This document shows, piece after piece, positions 3,350 to 19,848 of a stretch of DNA of 20,000 nucleotides (position 1 is its first letter; the number at the start of each line of letters is the position of its first letter). The notes below the pieces were generated by a model. It was not told the DNA's origin and searched no databases. It saw nothing but the letters and a program-made list of their open reading frames with translations. The stretch lies in the sequence record SRR31156797_2530. One strand, written 5' to 3'. Made by a program: the position numbers and the translations under genes.

Positions 3350-3742
3350 TTAACGAGGTTCATGTTCTTTGGCCAGAAGATCTGTTGCCAAGCGCTGGGC
3401 CAAATATTCCCAAAGAATGCCGCCAAAAAAAGCGCCTATCATATAAAGAATGACTGCTTGCAGCTCCAATGGATTATTTGCTAGCCAGAAAGAAAATAGC
3501 GAGCCGATGATGAATAGGTAGCTGCCAAAAAGCACTTGCCGCCACGAGCGTTTTTTAACAAACTTGCTAATGAGAAAGGTTGAAAGGATCATCAAGAGAA
3601 TTTGGATGAATGCCAGCGAAGGCAAAAGTGCAAAGTCAGAAACAACCATTTCCCAAAATTGTTGAATCAAGAAAAAGAAAGCAAAGAGAATGAGCCCGCG
3701 TGAGAATATACTAAGCCGCAAGGAAGATATTTTTTTTCGCAT
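3350..3742 (-). CDS. Hypothetical membrane protein (about 4 TM)
   Basis: 130 aa with four hydrophobic segments; AAGGAG SD upstream of the ATG. Confidence 0.8.
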   Translation of the reverse strand: MRKKISSLRLSIFSRGLILFAFFFLIQQFWEMVVSDFALLPSLAFIQILLMILSTFLISKFVKKRSWRQVLFGSYLFIIGSLFSFWLANNPLELQAVILYMIGAFFGGILWEYLAQRLATDLLAKEHEPR

Positions 3743-3903
3743 TGGTTTACTCCTTGAAAGGTTTTCTTTATTATAGCAAATTTTTAGTTAAACAATGTAA
3801 AAAGATGAACGAGAAGGTCTGCAAAAAACTTCTCCTAAGTATGCGCTCTTTTAGTATACTTGAAAGAAACGAGTGGATGGACTCGATACATGAGGAGGAT
3901 TGC

Positions 3904-5148
3904 ATGCCAATGATTCTTTTTGCACCTGCGGTATTCAACTTGGCTGAAACGACACGGATGATCGAAGTCGCTAAACAAATGCAAGGAAATCACCACTGTG
4001 AGTTCTTTGGTTTTTCAAAGACCTTTGCTTCACTTATCATTGAAAGTGGTTTTACGTACCATTTATTGACGCCGACTCTTACAGAAAAACAAGAGGAACA
4101 GATCATAAAATTAGATCAACTGCGCTCATTCAAAAATCCCTTCACCAAAGAGATGGTTGCTGCGCGTATTCTGAGCGAAAAAAAACTGGTCGACAAGCTT
4201 GCTCCTCAGGTGATTGTAACTGGATCGAATGTCACGATCTTTCTATCTGCTCGCAGCAAACAGATTCCCTTAGTCTACGTAAAACCCTATGCGATGAGTG
4301 ATCCCTTTTTTCGATCAGATAGCGCGTTTATCCCTTCTAGTTTGCGTTTCTTCGGACCGTTAAGGAAACCACTTTGGTATTGGACAAGAAAACAATTGGT
4401 AAAATCCCGCTGGATGCCCCGAGCATTCAAACACGCTGCCCAAACAGAAAAACTTTCTATGCCTGAAACGAGCTTACGAATGATGGACGCTGATTTAAAT
4501 CTCATCACCACTCCTGAACGCTTTATAACAAAAGAGCTGCTGCCAGATAATTATCGAATCGTGGGGCCGATTTTTGCCAAGATGGGGGCGTCCTTGCCAG
4601 AAGAAGTGTTGACTTTTATTGAACAAAAGCGGCGGGAAAGAAAACGAATCGTTTATTTTGCAATGGGCAGTTCGGGGAATCCGCGCATGGTGCGAAAAAT
4701 CTTAGCTTTCTTACAAAACCGTCCGGAACTAGCGATCATTGCTCCGGTTACGCATCTACTCAAGGGGAAACACAACGTCTCAGAGAATTTGTTCCTGACC
4801 GAATATCTGCCAAGTCATCTATTGCATGAGCATATCGATTTTTCTTTTATCCATGGTGGGGAAGGGACTGTTCAAACAGCTTGTGCCTCTGGGAAGCCGT
4901 TTATCGGAATCGGGATGCACTATGAGCAAAGCTGCAATATTCAGTACTGCGTGGCGTATGGCAATGCAATTGCACTGACAAAACCAGTAACTGAGAAAAA
5001 TCTGGAAACTGCTCTGACAGAGGTTGGAGATCTGAAGATTTGCCAACAAGCCTGCCAGCTAAAGAATCATTTCCCGACAAATGGTCCTCAGAAGGCGATG
5101 CAGGAGATTGAGCACTTTTTAGAAATAAACAATAGTGATTATCATTGA
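3904..5148 (+). CDS. GT-B fold family-1 (UDP-glucuronosyl/MGT-like) glycosyltransferase
   Basis: VYFAMGSSG, EYLP and FIHGGEGTVQTACASGKPFIGIGMHYEQ UDP-sugar signature. SD GAGGAGG supports the ATG at 3904 (414 aa) over 3742. Confidence 0.88.
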   Translation: MPMILFAPAVFNLAETTRMIEVAKQMQGNHHCEFFGFSKTFASLIIESGFTYHLLTPTLTEKQEEQIIKLDQLRSFKNPFTKEMVAARILSEKKLVDKLAPQVIVTGSNVTIFLSARSKQIPLVYVKPYAMSDPFFRSDSAFIPSSLRFFGPLRKPLWYWTRKQLVKSRWMPRAFKHAAQTEKLSMPETSLRMMDADLNLITTPERFITKELLPDNYRIVGPIFAKMGASLPEEVLTFIEQKRRERKRIVYFAMGSSGNPRMVRKILAFLQNRPELAIIAPVTHLLKGKHNVSENLFLTEYLPSHLLHEHIDFSFIHGGEGTVQTACASGKPFIGIGMHYEQSCNIQYCVAYGNAIALTKPVTEKNLETALTEVGDLKICQQACQLKNHFPTNGPQKAMQEIEHFLEINNSDYH

Positions 5149-5166
5149 GATAATCACTATTGTTTA
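5126..5166. terminator. Bidirectional terminator-like hairpin overlapping the stop codons of both convergent genes
   Basis: Perfect 18-bp inverted repeat TAAACAATAGTGATTATC-ATTGA-GATAATCACTATTGTTTA. Confidence 0.75.
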
Positions 5167-5649
5167 ATAGAGATCTAATAGCATCAGCAAACCTGGGACC
5201 CACGTAGTGAAGATACCGCAAGCGATCGCAAAATAATGAATCTTACGACCAAAGTTTACCTTCACGATCGTATCCAAAAAGCCGCAAAACCATAATGCTC
5301 CCCATGTTAACCAAATCAGTGCAAAAAGGGGATCTTGCTCCCATTGCCAAGAGACCCAGGCAAAAGGCAAGGTATTGATGGCTACGAATAGCGCAAAAAT
5401 TCCATAAATCCGTAGATCCAAACCAAAGAGATAAATAATTCCTACTAGTAAATACGTGAAGGCAAAGAGAAAGCCTGTGCCTGCTTCATAATAAGCACCT
5501 TGGAGCATATAGATTAGATTGATAATGAAAGATAACGAACCTGTAAAAAGATTAATTAAAGCAAGTGAACGATAGTCAATGTGAAGTAAACTTCCCCAGC
5601 CGTTGATTATCAAAGTAATTCCTACAAAAAATAAGCCGATCCCTAACAT
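5164..5649 (-). CDS. AmiS/UreI family urea/short-amide channel
   Basis: N-terminus MLGIGLFFVGITLIINGW, FLFAFTYL, YGIFALFVAINT, WLTWGALWF and TTWVPG; about 6 TM; AAGGAGG SD. Confidence 0.9.
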   Translation of the reverse strand: MLGIGLFFVGITLIINGWGSLLHIDYRSLALINLFTGSLSFIINLIYMLQGAYYEAGTGFLFAFTYLLVGIIYLFGLDLRIYGIFALFVAINTLPFAWVSWQWEQDPLFALIWLTWGALWFCGFLDTIVKVNFGRKIHYFAIACGIFTTWVPGLLMLLDLY

Positions 5650-5990
5650 AAAATCCTCCTTTACTTAAATTTAGAATAACAAATTCCAAGAAAAAACAAT
5701 ACCTTTATTTATTTTTATGTCAATAAAAAGGAAAATAATTTTCAAATTTAATATTTTTTGCTGTTAAATTTGATAAAATCAATAACAAAGAGCGCTGCTT
5801 GCCGATGTTTTTCTCGTTAAGGGGAAAATTCCAGCGTTTAAAAGGAACTTTAACTCGTTGGAAGAATGGGAAAAGAGAGAGGAACAATAGATTTTCAGTG
5901 TATTAATTGGACAAAAAGCTGACGAGGCAGTAGCTTATCGGTTTTTACGAATTTGCAGCAGTGAAGACTGTTTTGCGGAAAGGAGGAATT

Positions 5991-6245
5991 ATGCCGAGAA
6001 AAGATCGAATCTTACTTTTTATTGACGAATATATGCAAGCTCAAGGTTGCGCACCTACCATACGAGAAATCTGTGCCAATGAAGAGATAAAAACAACTTC
6101 TTTGGTTTATCGTCATTTATTGCGTCTTGAAAAAAGAGGCCTGATTTACCGAGCTTATCGCTTTAAGTCACGTTCGGTTCGTTTTACAGACGAAGGGAAG
6201 GCCTATGTCAAAGTGTTGCGACAAGCACAAGCCAACGAAGAATAA
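5991..6245 (+). CDS. LexA-type winged-helix DNA-binding-domain-only protein (84 aa)
   Basis: ILLFIDEYMQAQGCAPTIREIC...TTSLVYRHLLRLEKRGLIYR...SRSV matches the LexA N-domain; no S24 peptidase domain. AAGGAGG SD before the ATG at 5991. Confidence 0.85.
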   Translation: MPRKDRILLFIDEYMQAQGCAPTIREICANEEIKTTSLVYRHLLRLEKRGLIYRAYRFKSRSVRFTDEGKAYVKVLRQAQANEE

Positions 6246-6250
6246 ATAAA

Positions 6251-6287
6251 ACCAAAATAAAAAAGCCTAAGGCTTTTTTATTTTGGT
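6251..6287. terminator. Bidirectional intrinsic terminator
   Basis: Perfect 17-bp inverted repeat ACCAAAATAAAAAAGCC-TAA-GGCTTTTTTATTTTGGT between convergent genes. Confidence 0.85.
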
Positions 6288-7264
6288 GCACGGTAGCCGG
6301 CAGCTTCCGCTTCAGCGATGGTTTTGAACCATTCTTTCGGGTTGGTAGTATCCTCGTAGTATTTAGATCCGGGCAAATGATAGATGCCACTTCTTGATCC
6401 TTTGATCAAACCGTTTCCTTGTTGATCGACATATTCTTTCTGTTTTTCCTCTGTTTCACTGCTTTGAGAAGTGGCTGTTGTCGTGTTGTTTTCACTACTT
6501 GTAGCATTCTCCGGCTGCGTCATATCTTCGTTGGAAATCTCGCTGCTACCATCCGCATAGTTGATTGTGACACCATCTTGGATGTTGAAGATATAATAGT
6601 TGAATTGGATCGTATCGTCGCCAATAGATTTGGCTTGCATCTGTACCCCACGGGCAACCAGCTCGTCATCGCGATAGATCGGGGTGACGGAATATCGGAC
6701 ATAATGATTTTTATCTTGCTTGAGATAATAGTTGATATCCATTTCTAAGCGCAACATCTCGGGATTGTTCAACTGACTTGTCCCTGTGATCAGATTCTTC
6801 CAGTTTGCATTTTCGCCAGCTAAAGCAAAGCCAATCAAGTGGGTTCGATTATATAAATATTTCCCATTGGGGAGCTGTTTATTACGCCAACCTGTCGGTT
6901 TCACACTGGAAATATCGCCACGCTTTTCCGTGGGCATCAAGGATTGATTCAACATTGCTTCAGCAGAGGTCGCACGATTGAGGTGATCGAGGTCGCCGTA
7001 TGCTTCCCAGGCGCCATTTTCAAGGGAAAGATCATCTTCTGAAAACTCAGGAATGTTCTGATTGACTTCAATCGTTTGGGTGCCTTGGTAAGTTAACTGT
7101 GCCAGCTCATCTGCACGAATATCCTTAGCAGAAGTGACTGCCACTTCTGATGATGGTGTTTTGTGATTTGGGAATAGATCATTACTGTGTAGGAAACTAA
7201 ATCCGACTGCTGCGAGTGCGAGAAGCGCAGTGACCGATCCGATAAATGTTTTTTTCTTTGCCAT
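6278..7264 (-). CDS. Secreted/membrane-anchored DNA/RNA non-specific endonuclease (EndA-like beta-beta-alpha-Me) with a small C-terminal domain
   Basis: N-terminal signal/anchor, [41 protein letters not shown]-rich linker; C-terminal [17 protein letters not shown]...[12 protein letters not shown] module. Confidence 0.92.
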
Positions 7265-10895: not shown

Positions 10896-11183
10896 CTAAA
10901 GAATGATCTTTTCTTCTTGTTCACGAAACCCTAGAACTTTTTGACGTGACTCGCCATCCCAATAGAGTAAGTCCAAATTCTTATGCAGCATTAGCTGTGT
11001 ATATAATTCTTTCAGCGTCAGAGCGGGTTTTTTTGGTTCAAAAAATAAAATCAATTGGTTATGGCTATCTTGGGCGATCGTCGTAAAAGGAATCAGGTTT
11101 TCTTTGTAAGTTAAATAAATTCCTTGGTAATCTGCTGCACTCGACGACGTTGTCAGTGCTGTCAAGAGGTCTCTTGCTCTCAT
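10896..11183 (-). CDS. Hypothetical protein, third gene of the YolD-like operon
   Basis: 95 aa; ATGA overlap with the upstream gene. Confidence 0.75.
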   Translation of the reverse strand: MRARDLLTALTTSSSAADYQGIYLTYKENLIPFTTIAQDSHNQLILFFEPKKPALTLKELYTQLMLHKNLDLLYWDGESRQKVLGFREQEEKIIL

Positions 11184-11458
11184 AATGAACCCGCCTTTAC
11201 TGTTTTTTGTCGATAGGCATCGATATCCAACATGATTTTCGTTTTGCCGTACACCGTATACTTTTGCACCACGAATTGACGGCGCTTATTCCAATAGCCG
11301 CCCACGGTTAGAAACATACCGTCATCAACATCCCCTAAAAAATTCAAACTGTGTTTCGCAATCAAACAGTTGGTGGTACCTAGTGTAAAGCGGACCAAAG
11401 GGGAGGGGGCAAAGGAGACGATTCTTATTTTTGAGACAGATCCTTTTTGTGTTTCCAT
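11180..11458 (-). CDS. Small beta-rich (OB-fold-like) protein of the type found in Firmicute umuC/yolD cassettes
   Basis: KGSVSKIR...PLVRFTL...NCLIAKHSLNFL...VGGYWNKRRQFVVQKY; AAGGAGG SD. Confidence 0.75.
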   Translation of the reverse strand: METQKGSVSKIRIVSFAPSPLVRFTLGTTNCLIAKHSLNFLGDVDDGMFLTVGGYWNKRRQFVVQKYTVYGKTKIMLDIDAYRQKTVKAGSL

Positions 11459-11494
11459 CAGGTATTCCTCCTTTAGTAAGTAGTAAAAAGCGGA

Positions 11495-11863
11495 TCATTC
11501 GTTGAGATCAAACCATTTTTTCTCTTCATAAAAAGCAACGTGACGAATCTCATCATAATGGATTTTTTCCGTTGTTTCTCCCGTCAAATAAATACCTAAT
11601 GGGTCATAACCGCTGATTTTCCCGATAATATCTGGAGGATAGCCGCCTTCTTCATTAACTTCTTCTCGTTGGATCGCCACAGTTAGGTTCTTTTTCATGG
11701 CTTCAAATAAACACTGATTGATTTCTTCCGTTGTGAGTGACGGCTTAGGTGGACAATCAAACTTACGTGTCGGTTCCTCTTCAATTTCAGTTGTATGCTC
11801 AGATAAAAAGAATCCTTGCCACTTTAGCTTTTTTCGATCTTCATATGGTTGTAGCATACCCAT
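11495..11863 (-). CDS. YolD-like protein
   Basis: YEDRKKLKWQGFFLSEHT N-terminal motif and an SH3/WYL-like C-terminus (IIGKISGYD...IHYDEIRHV). GAGGTG SD 6 nt before the ATG at 11863; SOS box upstream. Confidence 0.8.
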   Translation of the reverse strand: MGMLQPYEDRKKLKWQGFFLSEHTTEIEEEPTRKFDCPPKPSLTTEEINQCLFEAMKKNLTVAIQREEVNEEGGYPPDIIGKISGYDPLGIYLTGETTEKIHYDEIRHVAFYEEKKWFDLNE

Positions 11864-11883
11864 AGCAATCACCTCTTATCTAT

Positions 11884-11913
11884 ATAATACAAACATACGT
11901 TCTCTTTTGTAAA
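11884..11913 (-). promoter_or_regulatory. Sigma-A promoter with a LexA (SOS/Cheo) box in the spacer
   Basis: TTTACA-18 nt-TATTAT, with GAAC-GTAT-GTTT at 11902-11891. Confidence 0.85.
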
Positions 11914-13400: not shown

Positions 13401-13829
13401 AATCATGTAACGGGTATTTGTTAGCATTTGCAACATCTAAGCACTAGTGTTAGAACTTTGAAACGGATTGGCTATATATGAATAAAGTTCGAGAAAAAAG
13501 CTCAAAGATTTTCAAAATGATTATAGCATACAATCAAACCGATTGGTTCGTAAATCAAGGCTAAGGCTGATAGCTTGAATCTGTATTTGCTGAGATAAAG
13601 AAAGTAGGACGACGAATCCGCAAGTACTTGCTACCAGACAGTTATCAATCTGTTAATCAGCAAATCAAAAAAAGAATCTGAAGAACATGTAAAACAAGAA
13701 ATTCTTAGTTTTAATTGAATTTTAGGTGCATTAGCGACAATCTACTGATAAAAGTCATTCGGAGGGAGGTAAAATGATACAAAATTGTTTTGAACTATTT
13801 AGAATGGCACGAACCCTTTTTTGAATGTA

Positions 13830-13867
<38 letters not shown>

Positions 13868-14209: not shown

Positions 14210-14654
14210 TAAATAGCCTAATGGGAATCTTGATCACAGGCAAACCAGCAACGATAAACAAGAAAAGTTGAGTTGCGTTCAGTTTTCACCTAAACGGATC
14301 CAATTCCCATAGCGAGTCCTAATCAAGGGATCACAGTCATCTAAGTACAATTTTCTTTTTGTTGCTGCTAATAAAGCAATGACAGCTACGGAAAGTTTCA
14401 AACTATGTAATACAGGATCGCCGAAAAGACAATGATCAAAACGACCAAAACAATGATTAGTTGATTTAAACGTCGAATAAGCAGGTTTTTCTTATTTTTT
14501 TCAAATTCTTTTCCTTCATTTCGATAATATTCTCTATCTTTTGTTCCCACGAGCGCCAACTCCTTTTCCCTGATTTTATCACTATCCTGAAAACAATGGG
14601 TGCAATCAAGGTGTTTTGTACAATAAATGGCAGTATTTTGTTAGAGCTTACCAT
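14210..14654 (-). pseudogene. Possible decayed membrane-protein gene fragments
   Basis: Hydrophobic peptide fragments (IIVLVVLIIVFSAILYYIV, SVAVIALLAA, FLFIVAGLPVI) broken by stops and frameshifts. Confidence 0.3.
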
Positions 14655-14670
14655 CGTATACGTATAGAGA

Positions 14671-15519
14671 CTAAATAAGACGACTGACGAGTTCTAAGTG
14701 ATTCATAACCGCAGCTTTCCGAATAACGCCCATACCTGGAAACGACCTTTGCTGATAGGCAGCAACTAATAGCTGCAGCCCAGCTGTTTGTGTAGGATAC
14801 TCTTCTTCATGCTGTAACAAAGCTTCCATGACTTCGAAAAACTTTTCTTTCTGATTTGGTAATTCTTCCTCAGAAAATAAGTGAACGATTCGCAAATCTT
14901 GCTCAGTTGTCGGATAGATCCAATGCAAAACCAACCGCTTTGAGGGATAACTGTGCTCATAATAAATTTTGCTATCGACAGAAAAATCACTAAACCCAGC
15001 ATAACCCAATTTTTGATAAAGATGATGGGTTTTTGAAAACCCTTCGTCCGGACATTCTGTATAAAAACTATTTTTAGGTAAACGGGTAAACGGATCTTCC
15101 ATCAGTAGTTTCGGGCCGTTGATTTTATTTAACAAACGAAACTCTTTGCCTACCAGCACCGGCAGTGTATTTTCCCGCCAATCACTAGCGAGTGCTGGGT
15201 CCGCTTGATGAACGATCCAAAGATCAGGCGTTTCTTCCACTGTTTCAATGGGTCGATCTACGATCATTGCTTTAGGGGCAGCAACATTTTGCAACTCTGC
15301 TAACCCCTCTGCAGTCAGAAAAGCCCCAGCCTGTGGATTGCGAACAAGATAAAAAGGATGCTGCTTCCTTTGAAACAGGTCAATGGTCGTCCAAAACGTT
15401 TTTGATTGCTTGACCGGTTCAATGATCGGCTGGATCGCTTCTGACAAGCGATCTTGTTCCAACAGTGCTTTCAACGCCAATAAATCAAATTGTTTTCCAC
15501 GAATATACGGGAAGTACAT
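14671..15519 (-). CDS. sce7725 family protein (related to the T4 beta-protein family)
   Basis: MYFPYIRGKQFDLLAL...IQPIIEPVK, EDPF...KNSFY, GYAGFSDFS, FPGMGVIRKAAVMNHLEL; GAAGGAG SD. Confidence 0.85.
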   Translation of the reverse strand: MYFPYIRGKQFDLLALKALLEQDRLSEAIQPIIEPVKQSKTFWTTIDLFQRKQHPFYLVRNPQAGAFLTAEGLAELQNVAAPKAMIVDRPIETVEETPDLWIVHQADPALASDWRENTLPVLVGKEFRLLNKINGPKLLMEDPFTRLPKNSFYTECPDEGFSKTHHLYQKLGYAGFSDFSVDSKIYYEHSYPSKRLVLHWIYPTTEQDLRIVHLFSEEELPNQKEKFFEVMEALLQHEEEYPTQTAGLQLLVAAYQQRSFPGMGVIRKAAVMNHLELVSRLI

Positions 15520-15534
15520 CTTCTTCTCTCCTTC

Positions 15535-16203
15535 TTACTTGCCTGATAAAAAACGTTTTTCCAGCGCTTCATAGGCTGCTCTCGTAGCGGCCAATTCTTC
15601 TTTCAAGGCTTCGATCGCTTGCAGCTGAGTATCTTCAATAAATCGATCATAGTAATTGACTCCACCACCGAACAAGTCATACTCAGGCTGGCGTTTCTTC
15701 AGTTCTTGGTACAAACGTTCTGTTGAAAATACCCGCAATCCTCGAGCAGTCTGTTTTGCTTTGCCGACTTCTCTCGCTTGTGCCGAAATCAACCGAAACA
15801 ATAAGCCATTTTCTGGAACCTGCAGCTCTTGCCGTTGGGGTTTCTTTTCGACACTGAAATACCCTTTGCTGCCCGTTTCTTTTTCAAGAAATGCATGATA
15901 GACCAAAACACCAATTGTAGGTGCAATCTGATCTTTGACTTTTTCATACAATGACTTGGGTAAGACAAAATAATTATAATTCCCAATAAAGGATAGTTTT
16001 GCTTTTGAGCGAAAATCTGCCAAACTAACTTTGAGTTCGTAGCAACGCCATTCAAATGTATTTTCAGTCGTCAAGCGACAACTCAAAGTATCCACGATGC
16101 CGTGATCATCTGGCATGACTACCTCTTCTACCACAATATCACTGTTTTCACGACAATAATAATAAAGTGCCTCTTCCATTTCTAAAGTTAAGGATGTCTT
16201 CAC
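15535..16203 (-). CDS. PD-(D/E)XK nuclease-fold protein (MmcB-like, phage-type) with a C-terminal coiled coil
   Basis: EEV...GIVD...CYELKVSLADFRS...GNYNYFVLP...IGVLV. GTG at 16203 (222 aa) is preferred because GTG at 16230 lies only 2 nt downstream of the -10 element. Confidence 0.8.
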   Translation of the reverse strand: MKTSLTLEMEEALYYYCRENSDIVVEEVVMPDDHGIVDTLSCRLTTENTFEWRCYELKVSLADFRSKAKLSFIGNYNYFVLPKSLYEKVKDQIAPTIGVLVYHAFLEKETGSKGYFSVEKKPQRQELQVPENGLLFRLISAQAREVGKAKQTARGLRVFSTERLYQELKKRQPEYDLFGGGVNYYDRFIEDTQLQAIEALKEELAATRAAYEALEKRFLSGK

Positions 16204-16232
16204 AAATTCACGACCTTTATCTTGTTTCACCT

Positions 16233-16251
16233 ATTATAAAACATATGTTCG
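16233..16251 (-). promoter_or_regulatory. LexA (SOS) box abutting a TATAAT -10 element
   Basis: Minus strand CGAAC-ATAT-GTTT-TATAAT. Confidence 0.85.
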
Positions 16252-16290
16252 CATTTTAAAAGAGGGAAATAAAAGCAACCTATCATCCCC

Positions 16291-16929
16291 TCACTCATTC
16301 GGGCATCCGTTACCGAGAATCTCTTCAACCGTCCTCTTTGTACCGCGGAATCGTAACAAAAAAAGCAGCAAGAGCACACCAAGTTGCGTGATTAATAGAC
16401 CTTTAAAGGGAAATTCAAAAGTAAAGCCTGCGGGAAGATGAAAGAAATGAAAAAAATCCTGCAGTGCTTTTTGACTAAGCCACAAACCGCTGACAAGCCC
16501 TATCAAACCAATAACAATGCTTTGAATGCCTACAAAGAAAAGCTCTTCTAAGGTGACCACCAACGGAGACTGTCCTAACAACAACCGAATACTCAGGGAT
16601 TGCTGCTCCTCCCCCATCAAATGAAAACGATACATGTGATTGCAGTGCCATAAAAAGGCGGCGATCAATCCTATAGCTAGAATGCTAAGTACGAAGCGCA
16701 GCAAATGCAAAAAGAAAAGCCAACTGGCATATGTGAGATCCATCTGATTCTCACCACTATTTGTTTCGTAGTGCAGCCATTGATGAAAAAAAACTAGCCA
16801 ATTCTCTGCAAAGATGGCAATGATCAGTAGAAGAATCGCCAATACACCACTCATCAGCAAACTGCGCCTACGAAGTGCTGCGTGCCAGCCGAATTGGCAA
16901 GGATAGTAGAAGTACCGCCATTTGTTCAT
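16291..16929 (-). CDS. FtsX-like permease-domain membrane protein (4 TM, very short extracellular loop)
   Basis: SIRLLLGQSPLVVTLEELFFVGIQSIVIGLIG resembles the FtsX/MacB C-domain. AAAAGGAGG SD before the ATG at 16929; promoter TTGTCT-17-TAAAAT at 16980-16952. Confidence 0.65.
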   Translation of the reverse strand: MNKWRYFYYPCQFGWHAALRRRSLLMSGVLAILLLIIAIFAENWLVFFHQWLHYETNSGENQMDLTYASWLFFLHLLRFVLSILAIGLIAAFLWHCNHMYRFHLMGEEQQSLSIRLLLGQSPLVVTLEELFFVGIQSIVIGLIGLVSGLWLSQKALQDFFHFFHLPAGFTFEFPFKGLLITQLGVLLLLFLLRFRGTKRTVEEILGNGCPNE

Positions 16930-16989
16930 GATAGCCCTCCTTTTGGCGTCTATTTTACAGAACTTTTCAAATTTAGACAAACATCTTCT

Positions 16990-17016
16990 TGTTTACATAA
17001 TATAATTATGAACAAA
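16990..17016 (-). other. dif-like site with a near-perfect XerD arm (candidate XerD-only binding site)
   Basis: Minus strand TTTGTTCATAA-TTATA-TTATGTAAACA; 14 contiguous nt (TATATTATGTAAAC) are identical to dif. Confidence 0.55.
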
Positions 17017-17047
17017 AAAGAGTGCGGCACGTAGCCCACACTCTTTT
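17012..17047 (-). terminator. Intrinsic terminator of the DUF6530/AAA-vWA operon
   Basis: Minus strand AAAAGAGTGTGGGC-TACGT-GCCGCACTCTTTTTTGTT. Confidence 0.8.
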
Positions 17048-17065
17048 CCCTTTAGCTATCGACGT

Positions 17066-19333
17066 CTACAAATACCTTGTCAGCAGCTGCAACAAGCGCT
17101 GCGGAAATTCTGTTAGATTGGAAAGATCAATAAAGCGTTCTTCCCCATAAATCGCTTTGATCACCTCTTTGTCTTGGCCAATGGCAGCTGCCAGAAACAG
17201 CACCCCTTGTCGTTCATAGTCAGCGATCACTTGCTGAATATCTTCTTTGGCTTTTACCCCTGTATAATCAGGAAGAGCTTTTGGCTGGCCATCACTGATA
17301 TTCAAGAGTAATTTAGTGGTTGCCGGCTGATGAGCGAGCTTTTCAGCTAGCACGCGCAAGACAGCCCCATCACGGTTATTTTGCCGAGGCTTCATTGTCA
17401 TGAGTTTCTCTGGCACAAATTCAAAGCCTTCATTAAATTCTTTGTAAGCAAAAAGCGAGGTTTTTTCACGAGCGGTCACGTCCGCTGTATCGCCATAGAT
17501 CATCAATGGCAAAGATAAACGTTCGGCAAAAGCATTCACCGCTAAGACCGCCTGTTGCGCATACAATATCCGATCTTCTCGAATCATCGAACCCGATTCA
17601 TCGATGCGCAAAGCAAGAGCTAAGGAAGGCTGTTCATGAGGTGGATTCTTCTTGTCAAAGGTCCGGAAATCTTGATACGCAACCTTGCTGGCATCAAAGC
17701 GTGTGCCGCTGTACTTACCTTTACTGTATGCCGAAGCTTGTTCATTTTCCAATACTTCTTGGGTTTGCTTGATCAATGACTCTACGATCGGCAGCAACGG
17801 CTGCAAACGCTGTTGGGCTTCAGTCGCTTTTTCTAAATCGACGGGTGGTCGATGAACGATCAGCCCTTCTTTGGCATGGATTGATTCTTTCAATGCTTGT
17901 CGTGCTGCCTTTGATGCCGTAGTTTTCTTTTCTTTCTCCTGGGCTTCATACGCTTCGATCGACAAAGAATGAGCAGCAGGAGCTGCCTCTTGTGCCTCAC
18001 TCCCAGCTTTTGCTTGGCCATCATGACTATTGCGTTCTAGTTCTTCTGAAAACGTCGCCTCAGTTGCTGCGCTTTTCGCTTCTTGTTTGTCAGAATCACT
18101 GGTTTCCATCGTTTCCGCCTCAGTTTCTTGATTGGCGGTCTCAAGGACTTGCTCATTTTTTAGGACGGGCGTGCCTTCTTCCACTACATTGCGCTGGTCC
18201 GCCTCTTCGCTGCTGATTCGGCGTCCTTTGATTTGTTCTTTAAAGGCATTTAGCGGTTGTCCAGAAAACAAAAGCCGCAATTGCGCCAATAACCCTGAAG
18301 CTTCTAGCGCCTGTTGTAAAAGAGAAAGCTCATTCGGATCGGTGGTGATTTTGTATAGCACTTTGCTATCAATTGCTGTAAAGGGATCTTGTCCTTGCTT
18401 GACTGCATTTAGCCAATAAAAATAGGAACGCATGCCCGCCACTCCTTTGATGGCGTTGGCTTTGGCGGTCACGTCTAGCAAGCGTATGATCTCAGCCATT
18501 TTCTCCGCAGTCGTTTTGTCCGGATAATTGGTTTTGGCAATGCCTCGCTGCACCATGACTGCTAGCTCAGGTAAATCCATTTTTTCAGCATGCTGCATCC
18601 GATCTCGCAAGGATTCGTTCAATGGTCGGTTGCCTTGGTAATTCCGATTCGTTGTGATGATCACCACACAGTCAGGGTGTCGTCGGACGAAGCCAGTCGG
18701 GATATTCAGCATTCCATTTTGTTCAAGGGCCGAGTTTAGTGCCACTAGTACCGAAGCATCACGAATGACCGTTGGCTCTTGAATCTCAAGCAAGTAGCCT
18801 TTTTCCAGCGCCCGTACGATTTCGGAGGGATAAAATTTGTATTGAATCGTAGGTTGTTGATCACTGGTTTCGATTCGTTCGATCAGTTCTGCAAATTTCG
18901 CCCGTGCCCGCTCACGAGTCAGGGAAAAATGCCGCTGGATCAACCCCAAAACATCTTCAAAACAATCACTTTGATAAATCGCATCCAGCAAGTCCTTGTC
19001 CTCTTCTTGGTCGGTGTTGATCACTGGTAATAAAGCACCAAACACATCTGACTTATCCATATCCGCAAAGCAGGTGATTTTGGTGTAGGGCAGTTGCAGG
19101 TCGGCAGAAAGTGCCTTTGCCAACTGGGTCTTGCCGGAACCAGCATCGCCTTCCAGCAACACATTGAAGATCTTCATCTCTGGATCCGCCCAATTCAACG
19201 CGATCTCTGAAGCAATTCGTAGTTCTTCAGCACTGGTCTGATGACTTTGTGGTTTTTTCCAAATCATGGTTTGTTCTAATTTGCTAAAAGCGCGTCCTTT
19301 CGTTACAACAAAAGACGGTTGATTTTGTGTCAT
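17066..19333 (-). CDS. MoxR/CbbQ-NorQ-type AAA+ ATPase fused through an acidic linker to a CobT/NorD-type vWA domain
   Basis: Walker A GDAGSGKT, Walker B variant LLEIQE, TTN sensor-1, SLRDR arginine finger; E/S/A-rich linker; MIDAS DESGSM, NNRD and ISDGQP; AAAGGAG SD. Confidence 0.92.
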   Translation of the reverse strand: MTQNQPSFVVTKGRAFSKLEQTMIWKKPQSHQTSAEELRIASEIALNWADPEMKIFNVLLEGDAGSGKTQLAKALSADLQLPYTKITCFADMDKSDVFGALLPVINTDQEEDKDLLDAIYQSDCFEDVLGLIQRHFSLTRERARAKFAELIERIETSDQQPTIQYKFYPSEIVRALEKGYLLEIQEPTVIRDASVLVALNSALEQNGMLNIPTGFVRRHPDCVVIITTNRNYQGNRPLNESLRDRMQHAEKMDLPELAVMVQRGIAKTNYPDKTTAEKMAEIIRLLDVTAKANAIKGVAGMRSYFYWLNAVKQGQDPFTAIDSKVLYKITTDPNELSLLQQALEASGLLAQLRLLFSGQPLNAFKEQIKGRRISSEEADQRNVVEEGTPVLKNEQVLETANQETEAETMETSDSDKQEAKSAATEATFSEELERNSHDGQAKAGSEAQEAAPAAHSLSIEAYEAQEKEKKTTASKAARQALKESIHAKEGLIVHRPPVDLEKATEAQQRLQPLLPIVESLIKQTQEVLENEQASAYSKGKYSGTRFDASKVAYQDFRTFDKKNPPHEQPSLALALRIDESGSMIREDRILYAQQAVLAVNAFAERLSLPLMIYGDTADVTAREKTSLFAYKEFNEGFEFVPEKLMTMKPRQNNRDGAVLRVLAEKLAHQPATTKLLLNISDGQPKALPDYTGVKAKEDIQQVIADYERQGVLFLAAAIGQDKEVIKAIYGEERFIDLSNLTEFPQRLLQLLTRYL

Positions 19334-19351
19334 GGCAATCTGCTCCTTTTC

Positions 19352-19831
19352 TTAATAACCTAGCTCATCTAAAAGCCGCTTTAGGATTTTGAAGCGTTCG
19401 CCGTATAGCTCGCCATCTTTTTGCAAGGAATCATAAAAAAGTAGAATGTCTTCATCGATCTTAGGATTTTCGGTGTCTACTTCAACGGTCATACGATTTC
19501 CTTGTAAGCCAATGATCTCGATCAACGGATTTTCAGGATCGTAAAACTTTTCATGGCGATAAGCCTCTTGAAAATACAAACTGGATTGCGCCACTAAGAT
19601 TGCTAGATCTAAGATTCTAGTGAGCGGTAGTTCTTCTGACTGACGAGACCATTTTTCACCTGTGTGGCGCCAAACCTTGCCTGAGATATCGACTTTTCCC
19701 CGGTCGTTCCATTGTGCCAATCCGAGGGAAAGGCCTTTTGCATCCGTATGTAACGCATTTTTTCCGTCAACAGTATCATAGTCTTCCACTTTAATGACGG
19801 GCTTATGTTTCAAGTTTTCTGGTATTTTCAT
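19352..19831 (-). CDS. DUF6530 family protein
   Basis: MKIPENLKHKPVI...DAKGLSLGLAQWNDRGKVDISGKVWRHTGEKWSRQSEELPL; AAGGAG SD before the ATG at 19831 (159 aa). Confidence 0.8.
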   Translation of the reverse strand: MKIPENLKHKPVIKVEDYDTVDGKNALHTDAKGLSLGLAQWNDRGKVDISGKVWRHTGEKWSRQSEELPLTRILDLAILVAQSSLYFQEAYRHEKFYDPENPLIEIIGLQGNRMTVEVDTENPKIDEDILLFYDSLQKDGELYGERFKILKRLLDELGY

Positions 19832-19848
19832 TGTTCTCACTCCTTGTT

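Follow-up and report, generated by a model that had tools for sequence, protein, structure and literature searches.

The sce7725 and sce7726 protein families have been named and are widespread, and no function has been assigned to them; the mentions of sce7725 found in the literature are annotation mentions only. Published sce7725/sce7726 pairs were placed on islands and on an integrative mobilisable element. The sole characterised relative is the anti-phage locus gop-beta-cII of P4, which gives protection from the phages lambda and P1 (Rousset et al. 2022, PMC9122126). In a preprint on 'TIM-B' proteins, the PF14350 family (Beta_protein) was unified with triosephosphate isomerase (TIM) barrels of the deazaguanine-transglycosylase kind, and TIM-B was proposed to be a negative regulator of linked effectors which include an uncharacterised restriction-type nuclease with helical extensions (bioRxiv 10.64898/2026.10.19.760177). 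A further point of comparison is MmcB, an SOS-linked PD-(D/E)XK nuclease that protects Caulobacter from mitomycin C, with MmcB-like proteins being almost exclusive to Alphaproteobacteria (PMC13705206). Here, a two-gene locus was analysed on a 20,000-nucleotide stretch of DNA from sequence record SRR31156797_2530 (the window). The locus (14671-16251, minus strand) consists of a promoter with a predicted LexA operator, a nuclease-like gene (g1) and an sce7725 gene (g2). As judged from sequence comparison, g1-g2 is a chromosomal, predicted LexA-controlled and gop-less variant of the sce7726/sce7725 (P4 cII/beta-type) dyad.

Nuclease-like protein g1 and its sce7725 partner g2

The g1 gene (15535-16203, minus strand) encodes a 222-residue PD-(D/E)XK nuclease-like protein with a GTG start and a helical, coiled-coil-like C-terminal tail. 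Translation was set to begin at the second GTG (16203, MKT...) and the stop codon is TAA at 15537-15535. This length was considered right because the second GTG is also where each of the 27 homologues in the alignment starts. A 231-residue form starting from the GTG at 16230, given by a mechanical list of open reading frames (ORFs), was rejected; this start is 2 nucleotides after the -10 element and is used by none of the 27 homologues. The g1 protein showed 99% identity with that of Enterococcus entomosocium and 98% with those of E. casseliflavus and E. innesii, and the window is chromosomal DNA of the E. casseliflavus group.

Residues E10, E26, E27, D38, E56 and K58 of g1 were invariant in 28 of 28 sequences. 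The AlphaFold2 model (predicted local distance difference test, pLDDT, of 79.3) showed an alpha-beta-beta-beta-alpha-beta core with a helix at 4-19, strands at 23-29, 36-44 and 50-57, then a helix and more strands; beyond this core, the C-terminal part forms long helices (131-158, 161-171 and 184-219). In the model, D38 was on strand two, E56 ended strand three and K58 was just past strand three, a placement that corresponds to the canonical PD-(D/E)XK arrangement. An initial annotation made from the letters alone had claimed a 222-residue protein with an E...D...ELK motif and a coiled-coil tail, and the start shared by the homologues, the invariant residues and the model all bore this out. 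A Foldseek search of the PDB ranked 3dnx first (expected value, E, of 2.3e-5; probability 1.00; template modelling, TM, score of 0.47 for the query and 0.67 for the target), and this was the sole match under E 0.001, with PaqCI, XisH and MspJI as weak followers. The DUF1052/PF06319 family is the one now named MmcB-like. The structure 3dnx was catalogued under DUF1052/PF06319 (Steczkiewicz et al. 2012, PMC3424549). None of 28 g1 family members matched the MmcB-like model PF06319, even at E up to 10.

The g1 protein had no match in the Pfam, NCBIfam or PADLOC models. Against the sce7726 model NF033832, no match was found for g1 at E up to 0.1 or for the orthologue of Levilactobacillus brevis at E up to 10 (the curated cut-offs are 70 bits for sce7726 NF033832 and 60 bits for sce7725 NF033831). 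A g1 profile search of 1.84 billion representatives gave 671 proteins at E up to 0.001. In a scan of 147 g1 relatives against NCBIfam (121 representatives from the profile search and 26 relatives of protein P0174), sce7726 was the sole recurrent family. Matches to sce7726 below the cut-off were found for 16 of 43 relatives (E up to 0.01) and 37 of 104 (E up to 0.001); distant relatives scored 15-45 bits, the best being P0174 (44.9 bits, E 1.2e-11), and none of the 147 reached 70 bits. The search seeded with P0174 produced 117 relatives, 0 of which were named sce7726 or were at the sce7726 cut-off. Since relatives from the g1 profile match sce7726 below the cut-off, g1 is best placed as a remote sister of sce7726, outside the family but related to it. 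Under a looser definition of sce7726 (PD-(D/E)XK fold, D...ExK motif and sce7725 neighbour), g1 has all three features.

The initial annotation had expected a nuclease fold in a protein other than an ordinary sce7726, which agrees with the canonical fold and the missing NF033832 match. Its description of g1 as a different, phage/MmcB-like nuclease was right in part. In its favour, 3dnx was the best structural match, and g1-like nuclease domains with 34-43% identity were found in 61 plasmid records and in 60 records from phages, 48 of which infect Bacillus, with one Bacillus phage homologue annotated as 'MmcB-like DNA repair protein'; the remote kinship with sce7726 and the PF06319 result did not support it. 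No sce7725 neighbour was annotated in the two solo phage or plasmid records that were inspected. When the g1 and g2 profiles were run against the sequences of solved structures, all matches were at chance level (E 0.46 or worse).

The spacer between the two genes (15520-15534, minus strand) is 15 nucleotides long and holds the ribosome-binding site AAGGAG (15533-15528, read from the sequence), 8 nucleotides ahead of the g2 ATG at 15519. The g2 gene (14671-15519, minus strand) encodes a 282-residue sce7725 family protein with an ATG start and a TIM-barrel-like alpha/beta fold. The match to NF033831 (sce7725_fam) had 264.2 bits and E 2e-78 over profile positions 1-311 of 312, far along the whole model, and g2 can be regarded from this as a bona fide full-length sce7725 protein. 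An sce7725-like gene 15 nucleotides on with its own Shine-Dalgarno sequence had been annotated initially, and both parts of this were confirmed. The g2 model (pLDDT 92.5, predicted TM score 0.90) had alternating strands and helices, and its top PDB matches were TIM barrels (FabK, TrpA, TIM and aldolase) with low TM scores of 0.36-0.43. An alignment of 40 sequences had 22 invariant columns. The invariant polar residues were R7, Q10, D12, N61, R128, D178 and H199, while E34 and D142 were nearly invariant. In the model, these conserved polar residues sit at or just past strand ends and would look like an active-site pocket, as a candidate only.

The ties between g2 and P4 beta were consistent yet weak. 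No match of g2 to PF14350 (Beta_protein) was found at E up to 10, and 2 of 40 g2 relatives matched it below threshold (best E 0.0029). An hhalign comparison of g2 with P4 beta gave E 0.02 over 100 columns with the GMG motif included, and the g2-P4 beta link had an atlas score of 0.75. The N-terminal match of g2 to PD-Lambda-2_C was 12.8 bits, compared with 49.5 bits for P4 beta. The matches listed by the g2 profile search were close sce7725 proteins only, with no bridge to PF14350. In a fold search of BFVD, the best match of g2 was an uncharacterised Gordonia phage protein (E 1e-7), a phage queuine tRNA-ribosyltransferase was at E 0.04, and P4 beta was not among the listed matches. For g1, hhalign with P4 cII gave E 0.27 with the ExK and GV motifs aligned, and our own hidden Markov model of 28 + 240 g1-superfamily sequences matched P4 cII with p 0.0056 and 2.5 bits; these two values, and the hhalign value of g2 with P4 beta, are each too weak alone for homology.

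Conservation of the pair was assessed by a scan of one genome per species, in which a g1 relative was found at 216 loci; the best 80 of these were taken. A g2 homologue was found directly downstream of g1 on the same strand in all 80 loci, 3-74 nucleotides past the end of the g1 match, and the co-occurrence of the two genes in other genomes held without exception in this sample. The metagenomic protein P0123 (544 residues) joins both parts in one chain, its residues 3-222 matching the g1 profile and its residues 244-535 matching sce7725 (266 bits). Identity of g1 was 52-99% across the three genera that hold the intact pair. In addition, g2 was nearly absent from the phage (3 records) and plasmid (6 records) collections. 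A complex prediction of g1 with g2 scored 0.00; it was run without supplied alignments or controls and carries no weight either way.

Three single records were also seen. One E. faecium record, which was submitted as plasmid DNA, holds the full g1-g2 pair. OR848224, an unannotated sequence of 10.5 kb with a Listeria phage label, has g1 and g2 adjacent (52% and 32% identity) and resembles the E. faecium copy. In Levilactobacillus tongjiangensis (locus L051, 6693-7157), the g2 frame ends after 155 codons and is maybe a pseudogene; g1 is intact there.

Predicted LexA operator and its conservation

The consensus of Cheo-type operators in the SOS (LexA) regulon of Bacillota is CGAACN4GTTCG. Upstream of g1, the predicted Cheo-type LexA operator CGAACATATGTTTT (16238-16251, minus strand) fills the spacer of a promoter. 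A consensus scan identified its -35-like hexamer TTTAAA at 16255-16260 with a 16-nucleotide spacer to TATAAT and 10 of 12 matches, and the -10 hexamer TATAAT at 16233-16238 was identified by the scan and by comparison, both on the minus strand. The operator is a 14-mer between -35 and -10, in line with the criterion of a Cheo-type operator within the promoter for members of the LexA regulon, and it differs from CGAACNNNNGTTCG by 2 mismatches, both within the final two bases. Its final T is base 1 of TATAAT (position 16238), and the SOS box claimed to abut TATAAT was therefore found to overlap the -10 by one base. In related Enterococcus loci, the -10 after the box is TATAAT, TATAGT or TATACT.

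The operator scan covered 150 nucleotides ahead of the operon's first gene, with locus L052 excluded as its upstream DNA was missing. A box with at most 2 mismatches was present in 35 of 41 Enterococcus/Enterococcaceae loci, and 3 further loci had a box with 3 mismatches; the conservation of g1, sce7725 and box across Enterococcus that the initial annotation had looked for was thus seen. The box was also present in 26 of 29 Levilactobacillus loci, each time a single mismatch from the consensus; of the 9 Tetragenococcus loci, only 1 had it. The background over the remainder of these loci was 300 matches in 948,223 positions, or 0.042 per 150-nucleotide window. Three layouts of box and promoter were distinguished. 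In most Enterococcus loci the box abuts the -10 (CGAACRTAYGTTTTATART). A second layout, in the thailandicus/mundtii/pallens/florum group and one E. faecium record, has the box CGAAAATAYGTTCS past the -10 and 26-30 nucleotides ahead of the ATG. In the third layout, that of the 26 Levilactobacillus loci with a box, CGAACACGCGTTCA is upstream of a -10 element of the TATGGTATGAT type, close to where the -35 would be expected. In a quick maximum-likelihood g1 tree, the main clades were three and matched the three layouts, and the genus labels required 4 changes compared with 32 when shuffled. The boxless Tetragenococcus loci include L023, L025, L029, L030, L033, L034 and L037, and T. halophilus has another conserved sequence upstream of g1-g2.

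The Levilactobacillus promoter precedes a helicase gene which ends in an ATGA overlap with g1. All 30 Levilactobacillus-type loci have this gene, and none of the other loci does. In L068 the DinG-family helicase (3569-6004, 788 residues) is behind a one-mismatch LexA box. Identity of the helicase among Levilactobacillus species was 77-86%. Its domains are Helicase_C_2, DEAD_2 and an N-terminal PDDEXK_1, and among the PADLOC models it matched DinG with 367 bits and Cas4 weakly.

A second SOS-type promoter was found in the window, 4.3 kb from the g1-g2 operator. It has AGAACGTATGTTTG abutting TATTAT (11890-11903, minus strand) with TTTACA as -35, and is 18 nucleotides ahead of a 125-residue ORF, the first of three small ORFs (125, 92 and 95 residues) at 10896-11903 on the minus strand. 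The 125-residue ORF matched the YolD-like family over nearly the whole profile at E 0.004, with 17.7 bits being below the threshold of 27.5. YolD-like genes of Bacillus are found together with translesion polymerases under SOS control. In all five loci with the YolD-like gene, the second promoter had its -35, box and -10 kept. Because this promoter shares its layout with that of g1, the GAAC-N4-GTTT box abutting the -10 looks like a genuine local operator type.

Several observations count against a LexA-controlled role of the pair in processing damaged DNA, and those on the operator are as follows. The right half-site of the box is imperfect, with GTTT where the consensus has GTTC. Boxes with at most 2 mismatches numbered 5 in the window against 6.75 expected, and promoter-like sites 6 against 4.3 expected, so that neither was enriched; because the box occurs at chance frequency, its weight comes only from position and conservation. 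The loci are related and their box counts are non-independent, with only the three layouts being independent. Finally, the genes are retained without the box in 8 of the 9 loci from Tetragenococcus and in 3 of the 29 from Levilactobacillus, and the function therefore cannot strictly need LexA. These same observations would fit a real pair with a non-working operator, in which the genes are constitutive or otherwise regulated and the palindrome in the spacer, shared partly by descent among close loci, is kept by descent. This explanation was judged very unlikely. Three non-homologous layouts with differing flanks each have the box, the Levilactobacillus boxes are a single mismatch from the consensus, and the arrangement with the box abutting the -10 recurs ahead of the YolD-like gene.

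Proposed role of the pair

The likeliest purpose of g1-g2 is that of a LexA-repressed bicistronic operon with a role in processing damaged DNA, to which a probability of roughly 45% was given. This role was favoured because the LexA box was kept or re-created through three layouts, because the pair clusters by genus, because in one genus the pair shares its operator with a DinG-family helicase-nuclease to which it is joined, and because the nearest fold relative is in the family of MmcB, an SOS-linked repair nuclease. The anatomy, family assignments, co-occurrence and conserved operator come from computation, and we infer that LexA binds and the genes are induced, that g1 is an active nuclease, that g1 and g2 are physical partners and that they serve repair. 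In undamaged cells, LexA on the spacer-filling operator, touching the -10, would block RNA polymerase. Upon DNA damage, RecA-stimulated self-cleavage of LexA would free the promoter and g1 and g2 would be made from one transcript; these switch steps are our reading of the parts in the light of what is well known of the SOS response. Catalysis would fall to g1, as a metal-dependent PD-(D/E)XK endonuclease that carries a helical tail. The g2 protein would be its obligate partner, which may control the g1 nuclease or may itself act on a DNA lesion or base. In Levilactobacillus, the pair would act together with the co-transcribed DinG/Cas4-like helicase-nuclease. The pair may represent a vertically inherited chromosomal descendant of a mobile sce7726/sce7725 dyad that now processes damaged DNA.

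A more specific form of this proposal is unlikely, and would have g2 as a DNA-directed TIM-barrel enzyme of the transglycosylase/glycosylase kind. With g1, and in Levilactobacillus with the helicase, it would perform LexA-induced excision of bulky or cross-linking lesions in Gram-positive bacteria, a pathway so far undescribed and recruited from a mobile conflict dyad of the P4 cII/beta type.

Three more observations are unfavourable to the damaged-DNA role. The MmcB link of g1 is fold-level only, given that PF06319 had no matches among the family members. Between clades, g2 identity was about 30% compared with 55% for g1, and such faster divergence of g2 would suit a conflict system in which it is the sensor or regulator. 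The nearest characterised relatives, P4 cII and the gop-beta-cII locus, are conflict systems and not repair enzymes. An SOS-triggered conflict module, either defensive or toxin-antitoxin-like, is the main alternative, which we hold to be less likely. In such a module g1 would be a toxic nuclease restrained by g2, as in P4 beta or 'TIM-B', and a damage signal from a phage, an induced prophage or a plasmid would fire the pair and lead to growth arrest or degradation of the invader. P4 cII, at 151.4 bits, is a true sce7726 protein, and the Beta_protein family was founded on P4 beta, which matches PF14350 with 191 bits. The protection of gop-beta-cII against lambda and P1, the negative regulation of linked nuclease effectors proposed for 'TIM-B' and the reports of sce7725/sce7726 pairs on islands and an integrative mobilisable element point the same way, as do the ties of g2 to beta (PF14350, hhalign and PD-Lambda-2_C), the solo g1-like nucleases of phages and plasmids and the boxless Tetragenococcus genes. 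However, the PADLOC models for gop, beta and cll were not matched by g1 or g2, whereas the P4 positive controls scored 231.7, 621.5 and 375.9 bits, and no Gop-like gene is part of the module. In addition, the distribution of the pair is genus-congruent and mostly chromosomal, the pair shares a predicted SOS operon with a conserved DinG-family helicase, and no mobile hallmark was found among the flanking ORFs scanned.

Surroundings of the pair and known systems compared

A dif-like 28-mer, AACTTTGTATAATATATATTATGTAAAC (13829-13856), is located 815 nucleotides from the g2 stop, and its assignment as dif rests on likeness to the Bacillota dif consensus. The 28-mer was identical in 9 loci of several Enterococcus species and had variants with 1-5 mismatches in 5 more. 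A dif-like site was within 6 kb of the pair in 14 of 80 loci only; dif proximity was therefore placed outside the module and dif linkage was ruled out as a part of it. The initial annotation of a LexA-controlled module next to dif was backed on LexA control by the operator, which is conserved in three layouts; the closeness to dif is true of the window but no part of the module. The pair could also be cargo, without a host function, of a Xer-dependent integrated element or another mobile remnant at dif. The short distance to the 28-mer and flanking genes common only to the casseliflavus/gallinarum group are compatible with this, but we consider it extremely unlikely as the window has a single dif-like copy and thus no flanking dif repeats, most loci have no dif nearby, the pair is intact across three genera at the g1 identities given above, and no recombinase or replication gene is near. 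No integrase, transposase or other mobile hallmark was found among the larger ORFs of the window.

Between g2 and dif, about 600 nucleotides contain two overlapping small ORFs at 14398-14654 on the minus strand (53 residues with a hydrophobic tail, and 62 residues), and this stretch is missing in relatives with dif about 180 nucleotides past g2. No terminator-like site was found after g2 in the window. Upstream of the pair, 16291-19840 on the minus strand encodes a 229-residue multi-pass membrane protein, a 755-residue AAA_5 and VWA-like protein and a DUF6530 protein (265 bits). These genes were rejected as a part of the module, being common to 5-8 of 80 loci only, and the trio is kept together only in the casseliflavus/gallinarum group. 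Finally, 5961-7264 holds a gene for a 94-residue protein with a LexA-type DNA-binding domain only (E 8e-11), without the peptidase part, which is convergent with a 328-residue Endonuclease_NS_2 gene 33 nucleotides apart.

Literature searches on sce7725 and PF14350 proteins and on LexA in Enterococcus gave no report of a chromosomal, LexA-controlled lineage that lacks gop, has a divergent nuclease and exists in a form joined to a helicase. The initial annotation had proposed an undescribed system; this applies to the predicted LexA-controlled, helicase-linked lineage, and does not extend to the dyad as such, since P4 gop-beta-cII and 'TIM-B' nuclease dyads have been published, neither publication mentioning LexA or Enterococcus. 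The lineage would tie a pair of families without assigned function to DNA damage as a setting. If true, this would mean either a conflict module domesticated into the SOS response or SOS as the trigger of a nuclease-based defence, with the DinG/Cas4-like helicase of the Levilactobacillus operon as a possible third component. The LexA regulon of Enterococcus, of which little has been mapped, would gain a member as well; none of the papers that a search listed dealt with this regulon. The lineage sits in tractable lactic acid bacteria and its predicted LexA operator was kept through three promoter rearrangements, which makes g1-g2 a good candidate for a damage-response or anti-phage function.

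Compared with MmcB, g1 is likewise a small PD-(D/E)XK nuclease-like protein with 3dnx as its best solved-structure match and with SOS-linked expression, which is predicted in the case of g1. Unlike g1, MmcB-like proteins have no sce7725 partner or helical tail, and g1 has no PF06319 membership. The 'TIM-B' systems are similar in joining a Beta_protein-like TIM barrel to an effector, and the helical extensions of their nuclease recall the helical tail of g1. However, the preprint text has no LexA, Enterococcus or sce7725, and g2 is weakly tied to PF14350. In P4 gop-beta-cII, a restriction-type nuclease of the sce7726 kind (cII) is found beside a TIM-barrel-type beta (PF14350), as in the present pair. 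P4 differs in having the Gop toxin and in having cII convergent to gop-beta, whereas here g1 precedes g2 on one strand, and LexA control was not reported for P4. The described sce7726/sce7725 pairs differ from g1-g2 in that g1 has no sce7726 match and in that the present locus is chromosomal, genus-clustered and behind a predicted LexA box. They are the same in that g2 is a full sce7725 member and its partner is a PD-(D/E)XK protein, adjacent and co-directional.

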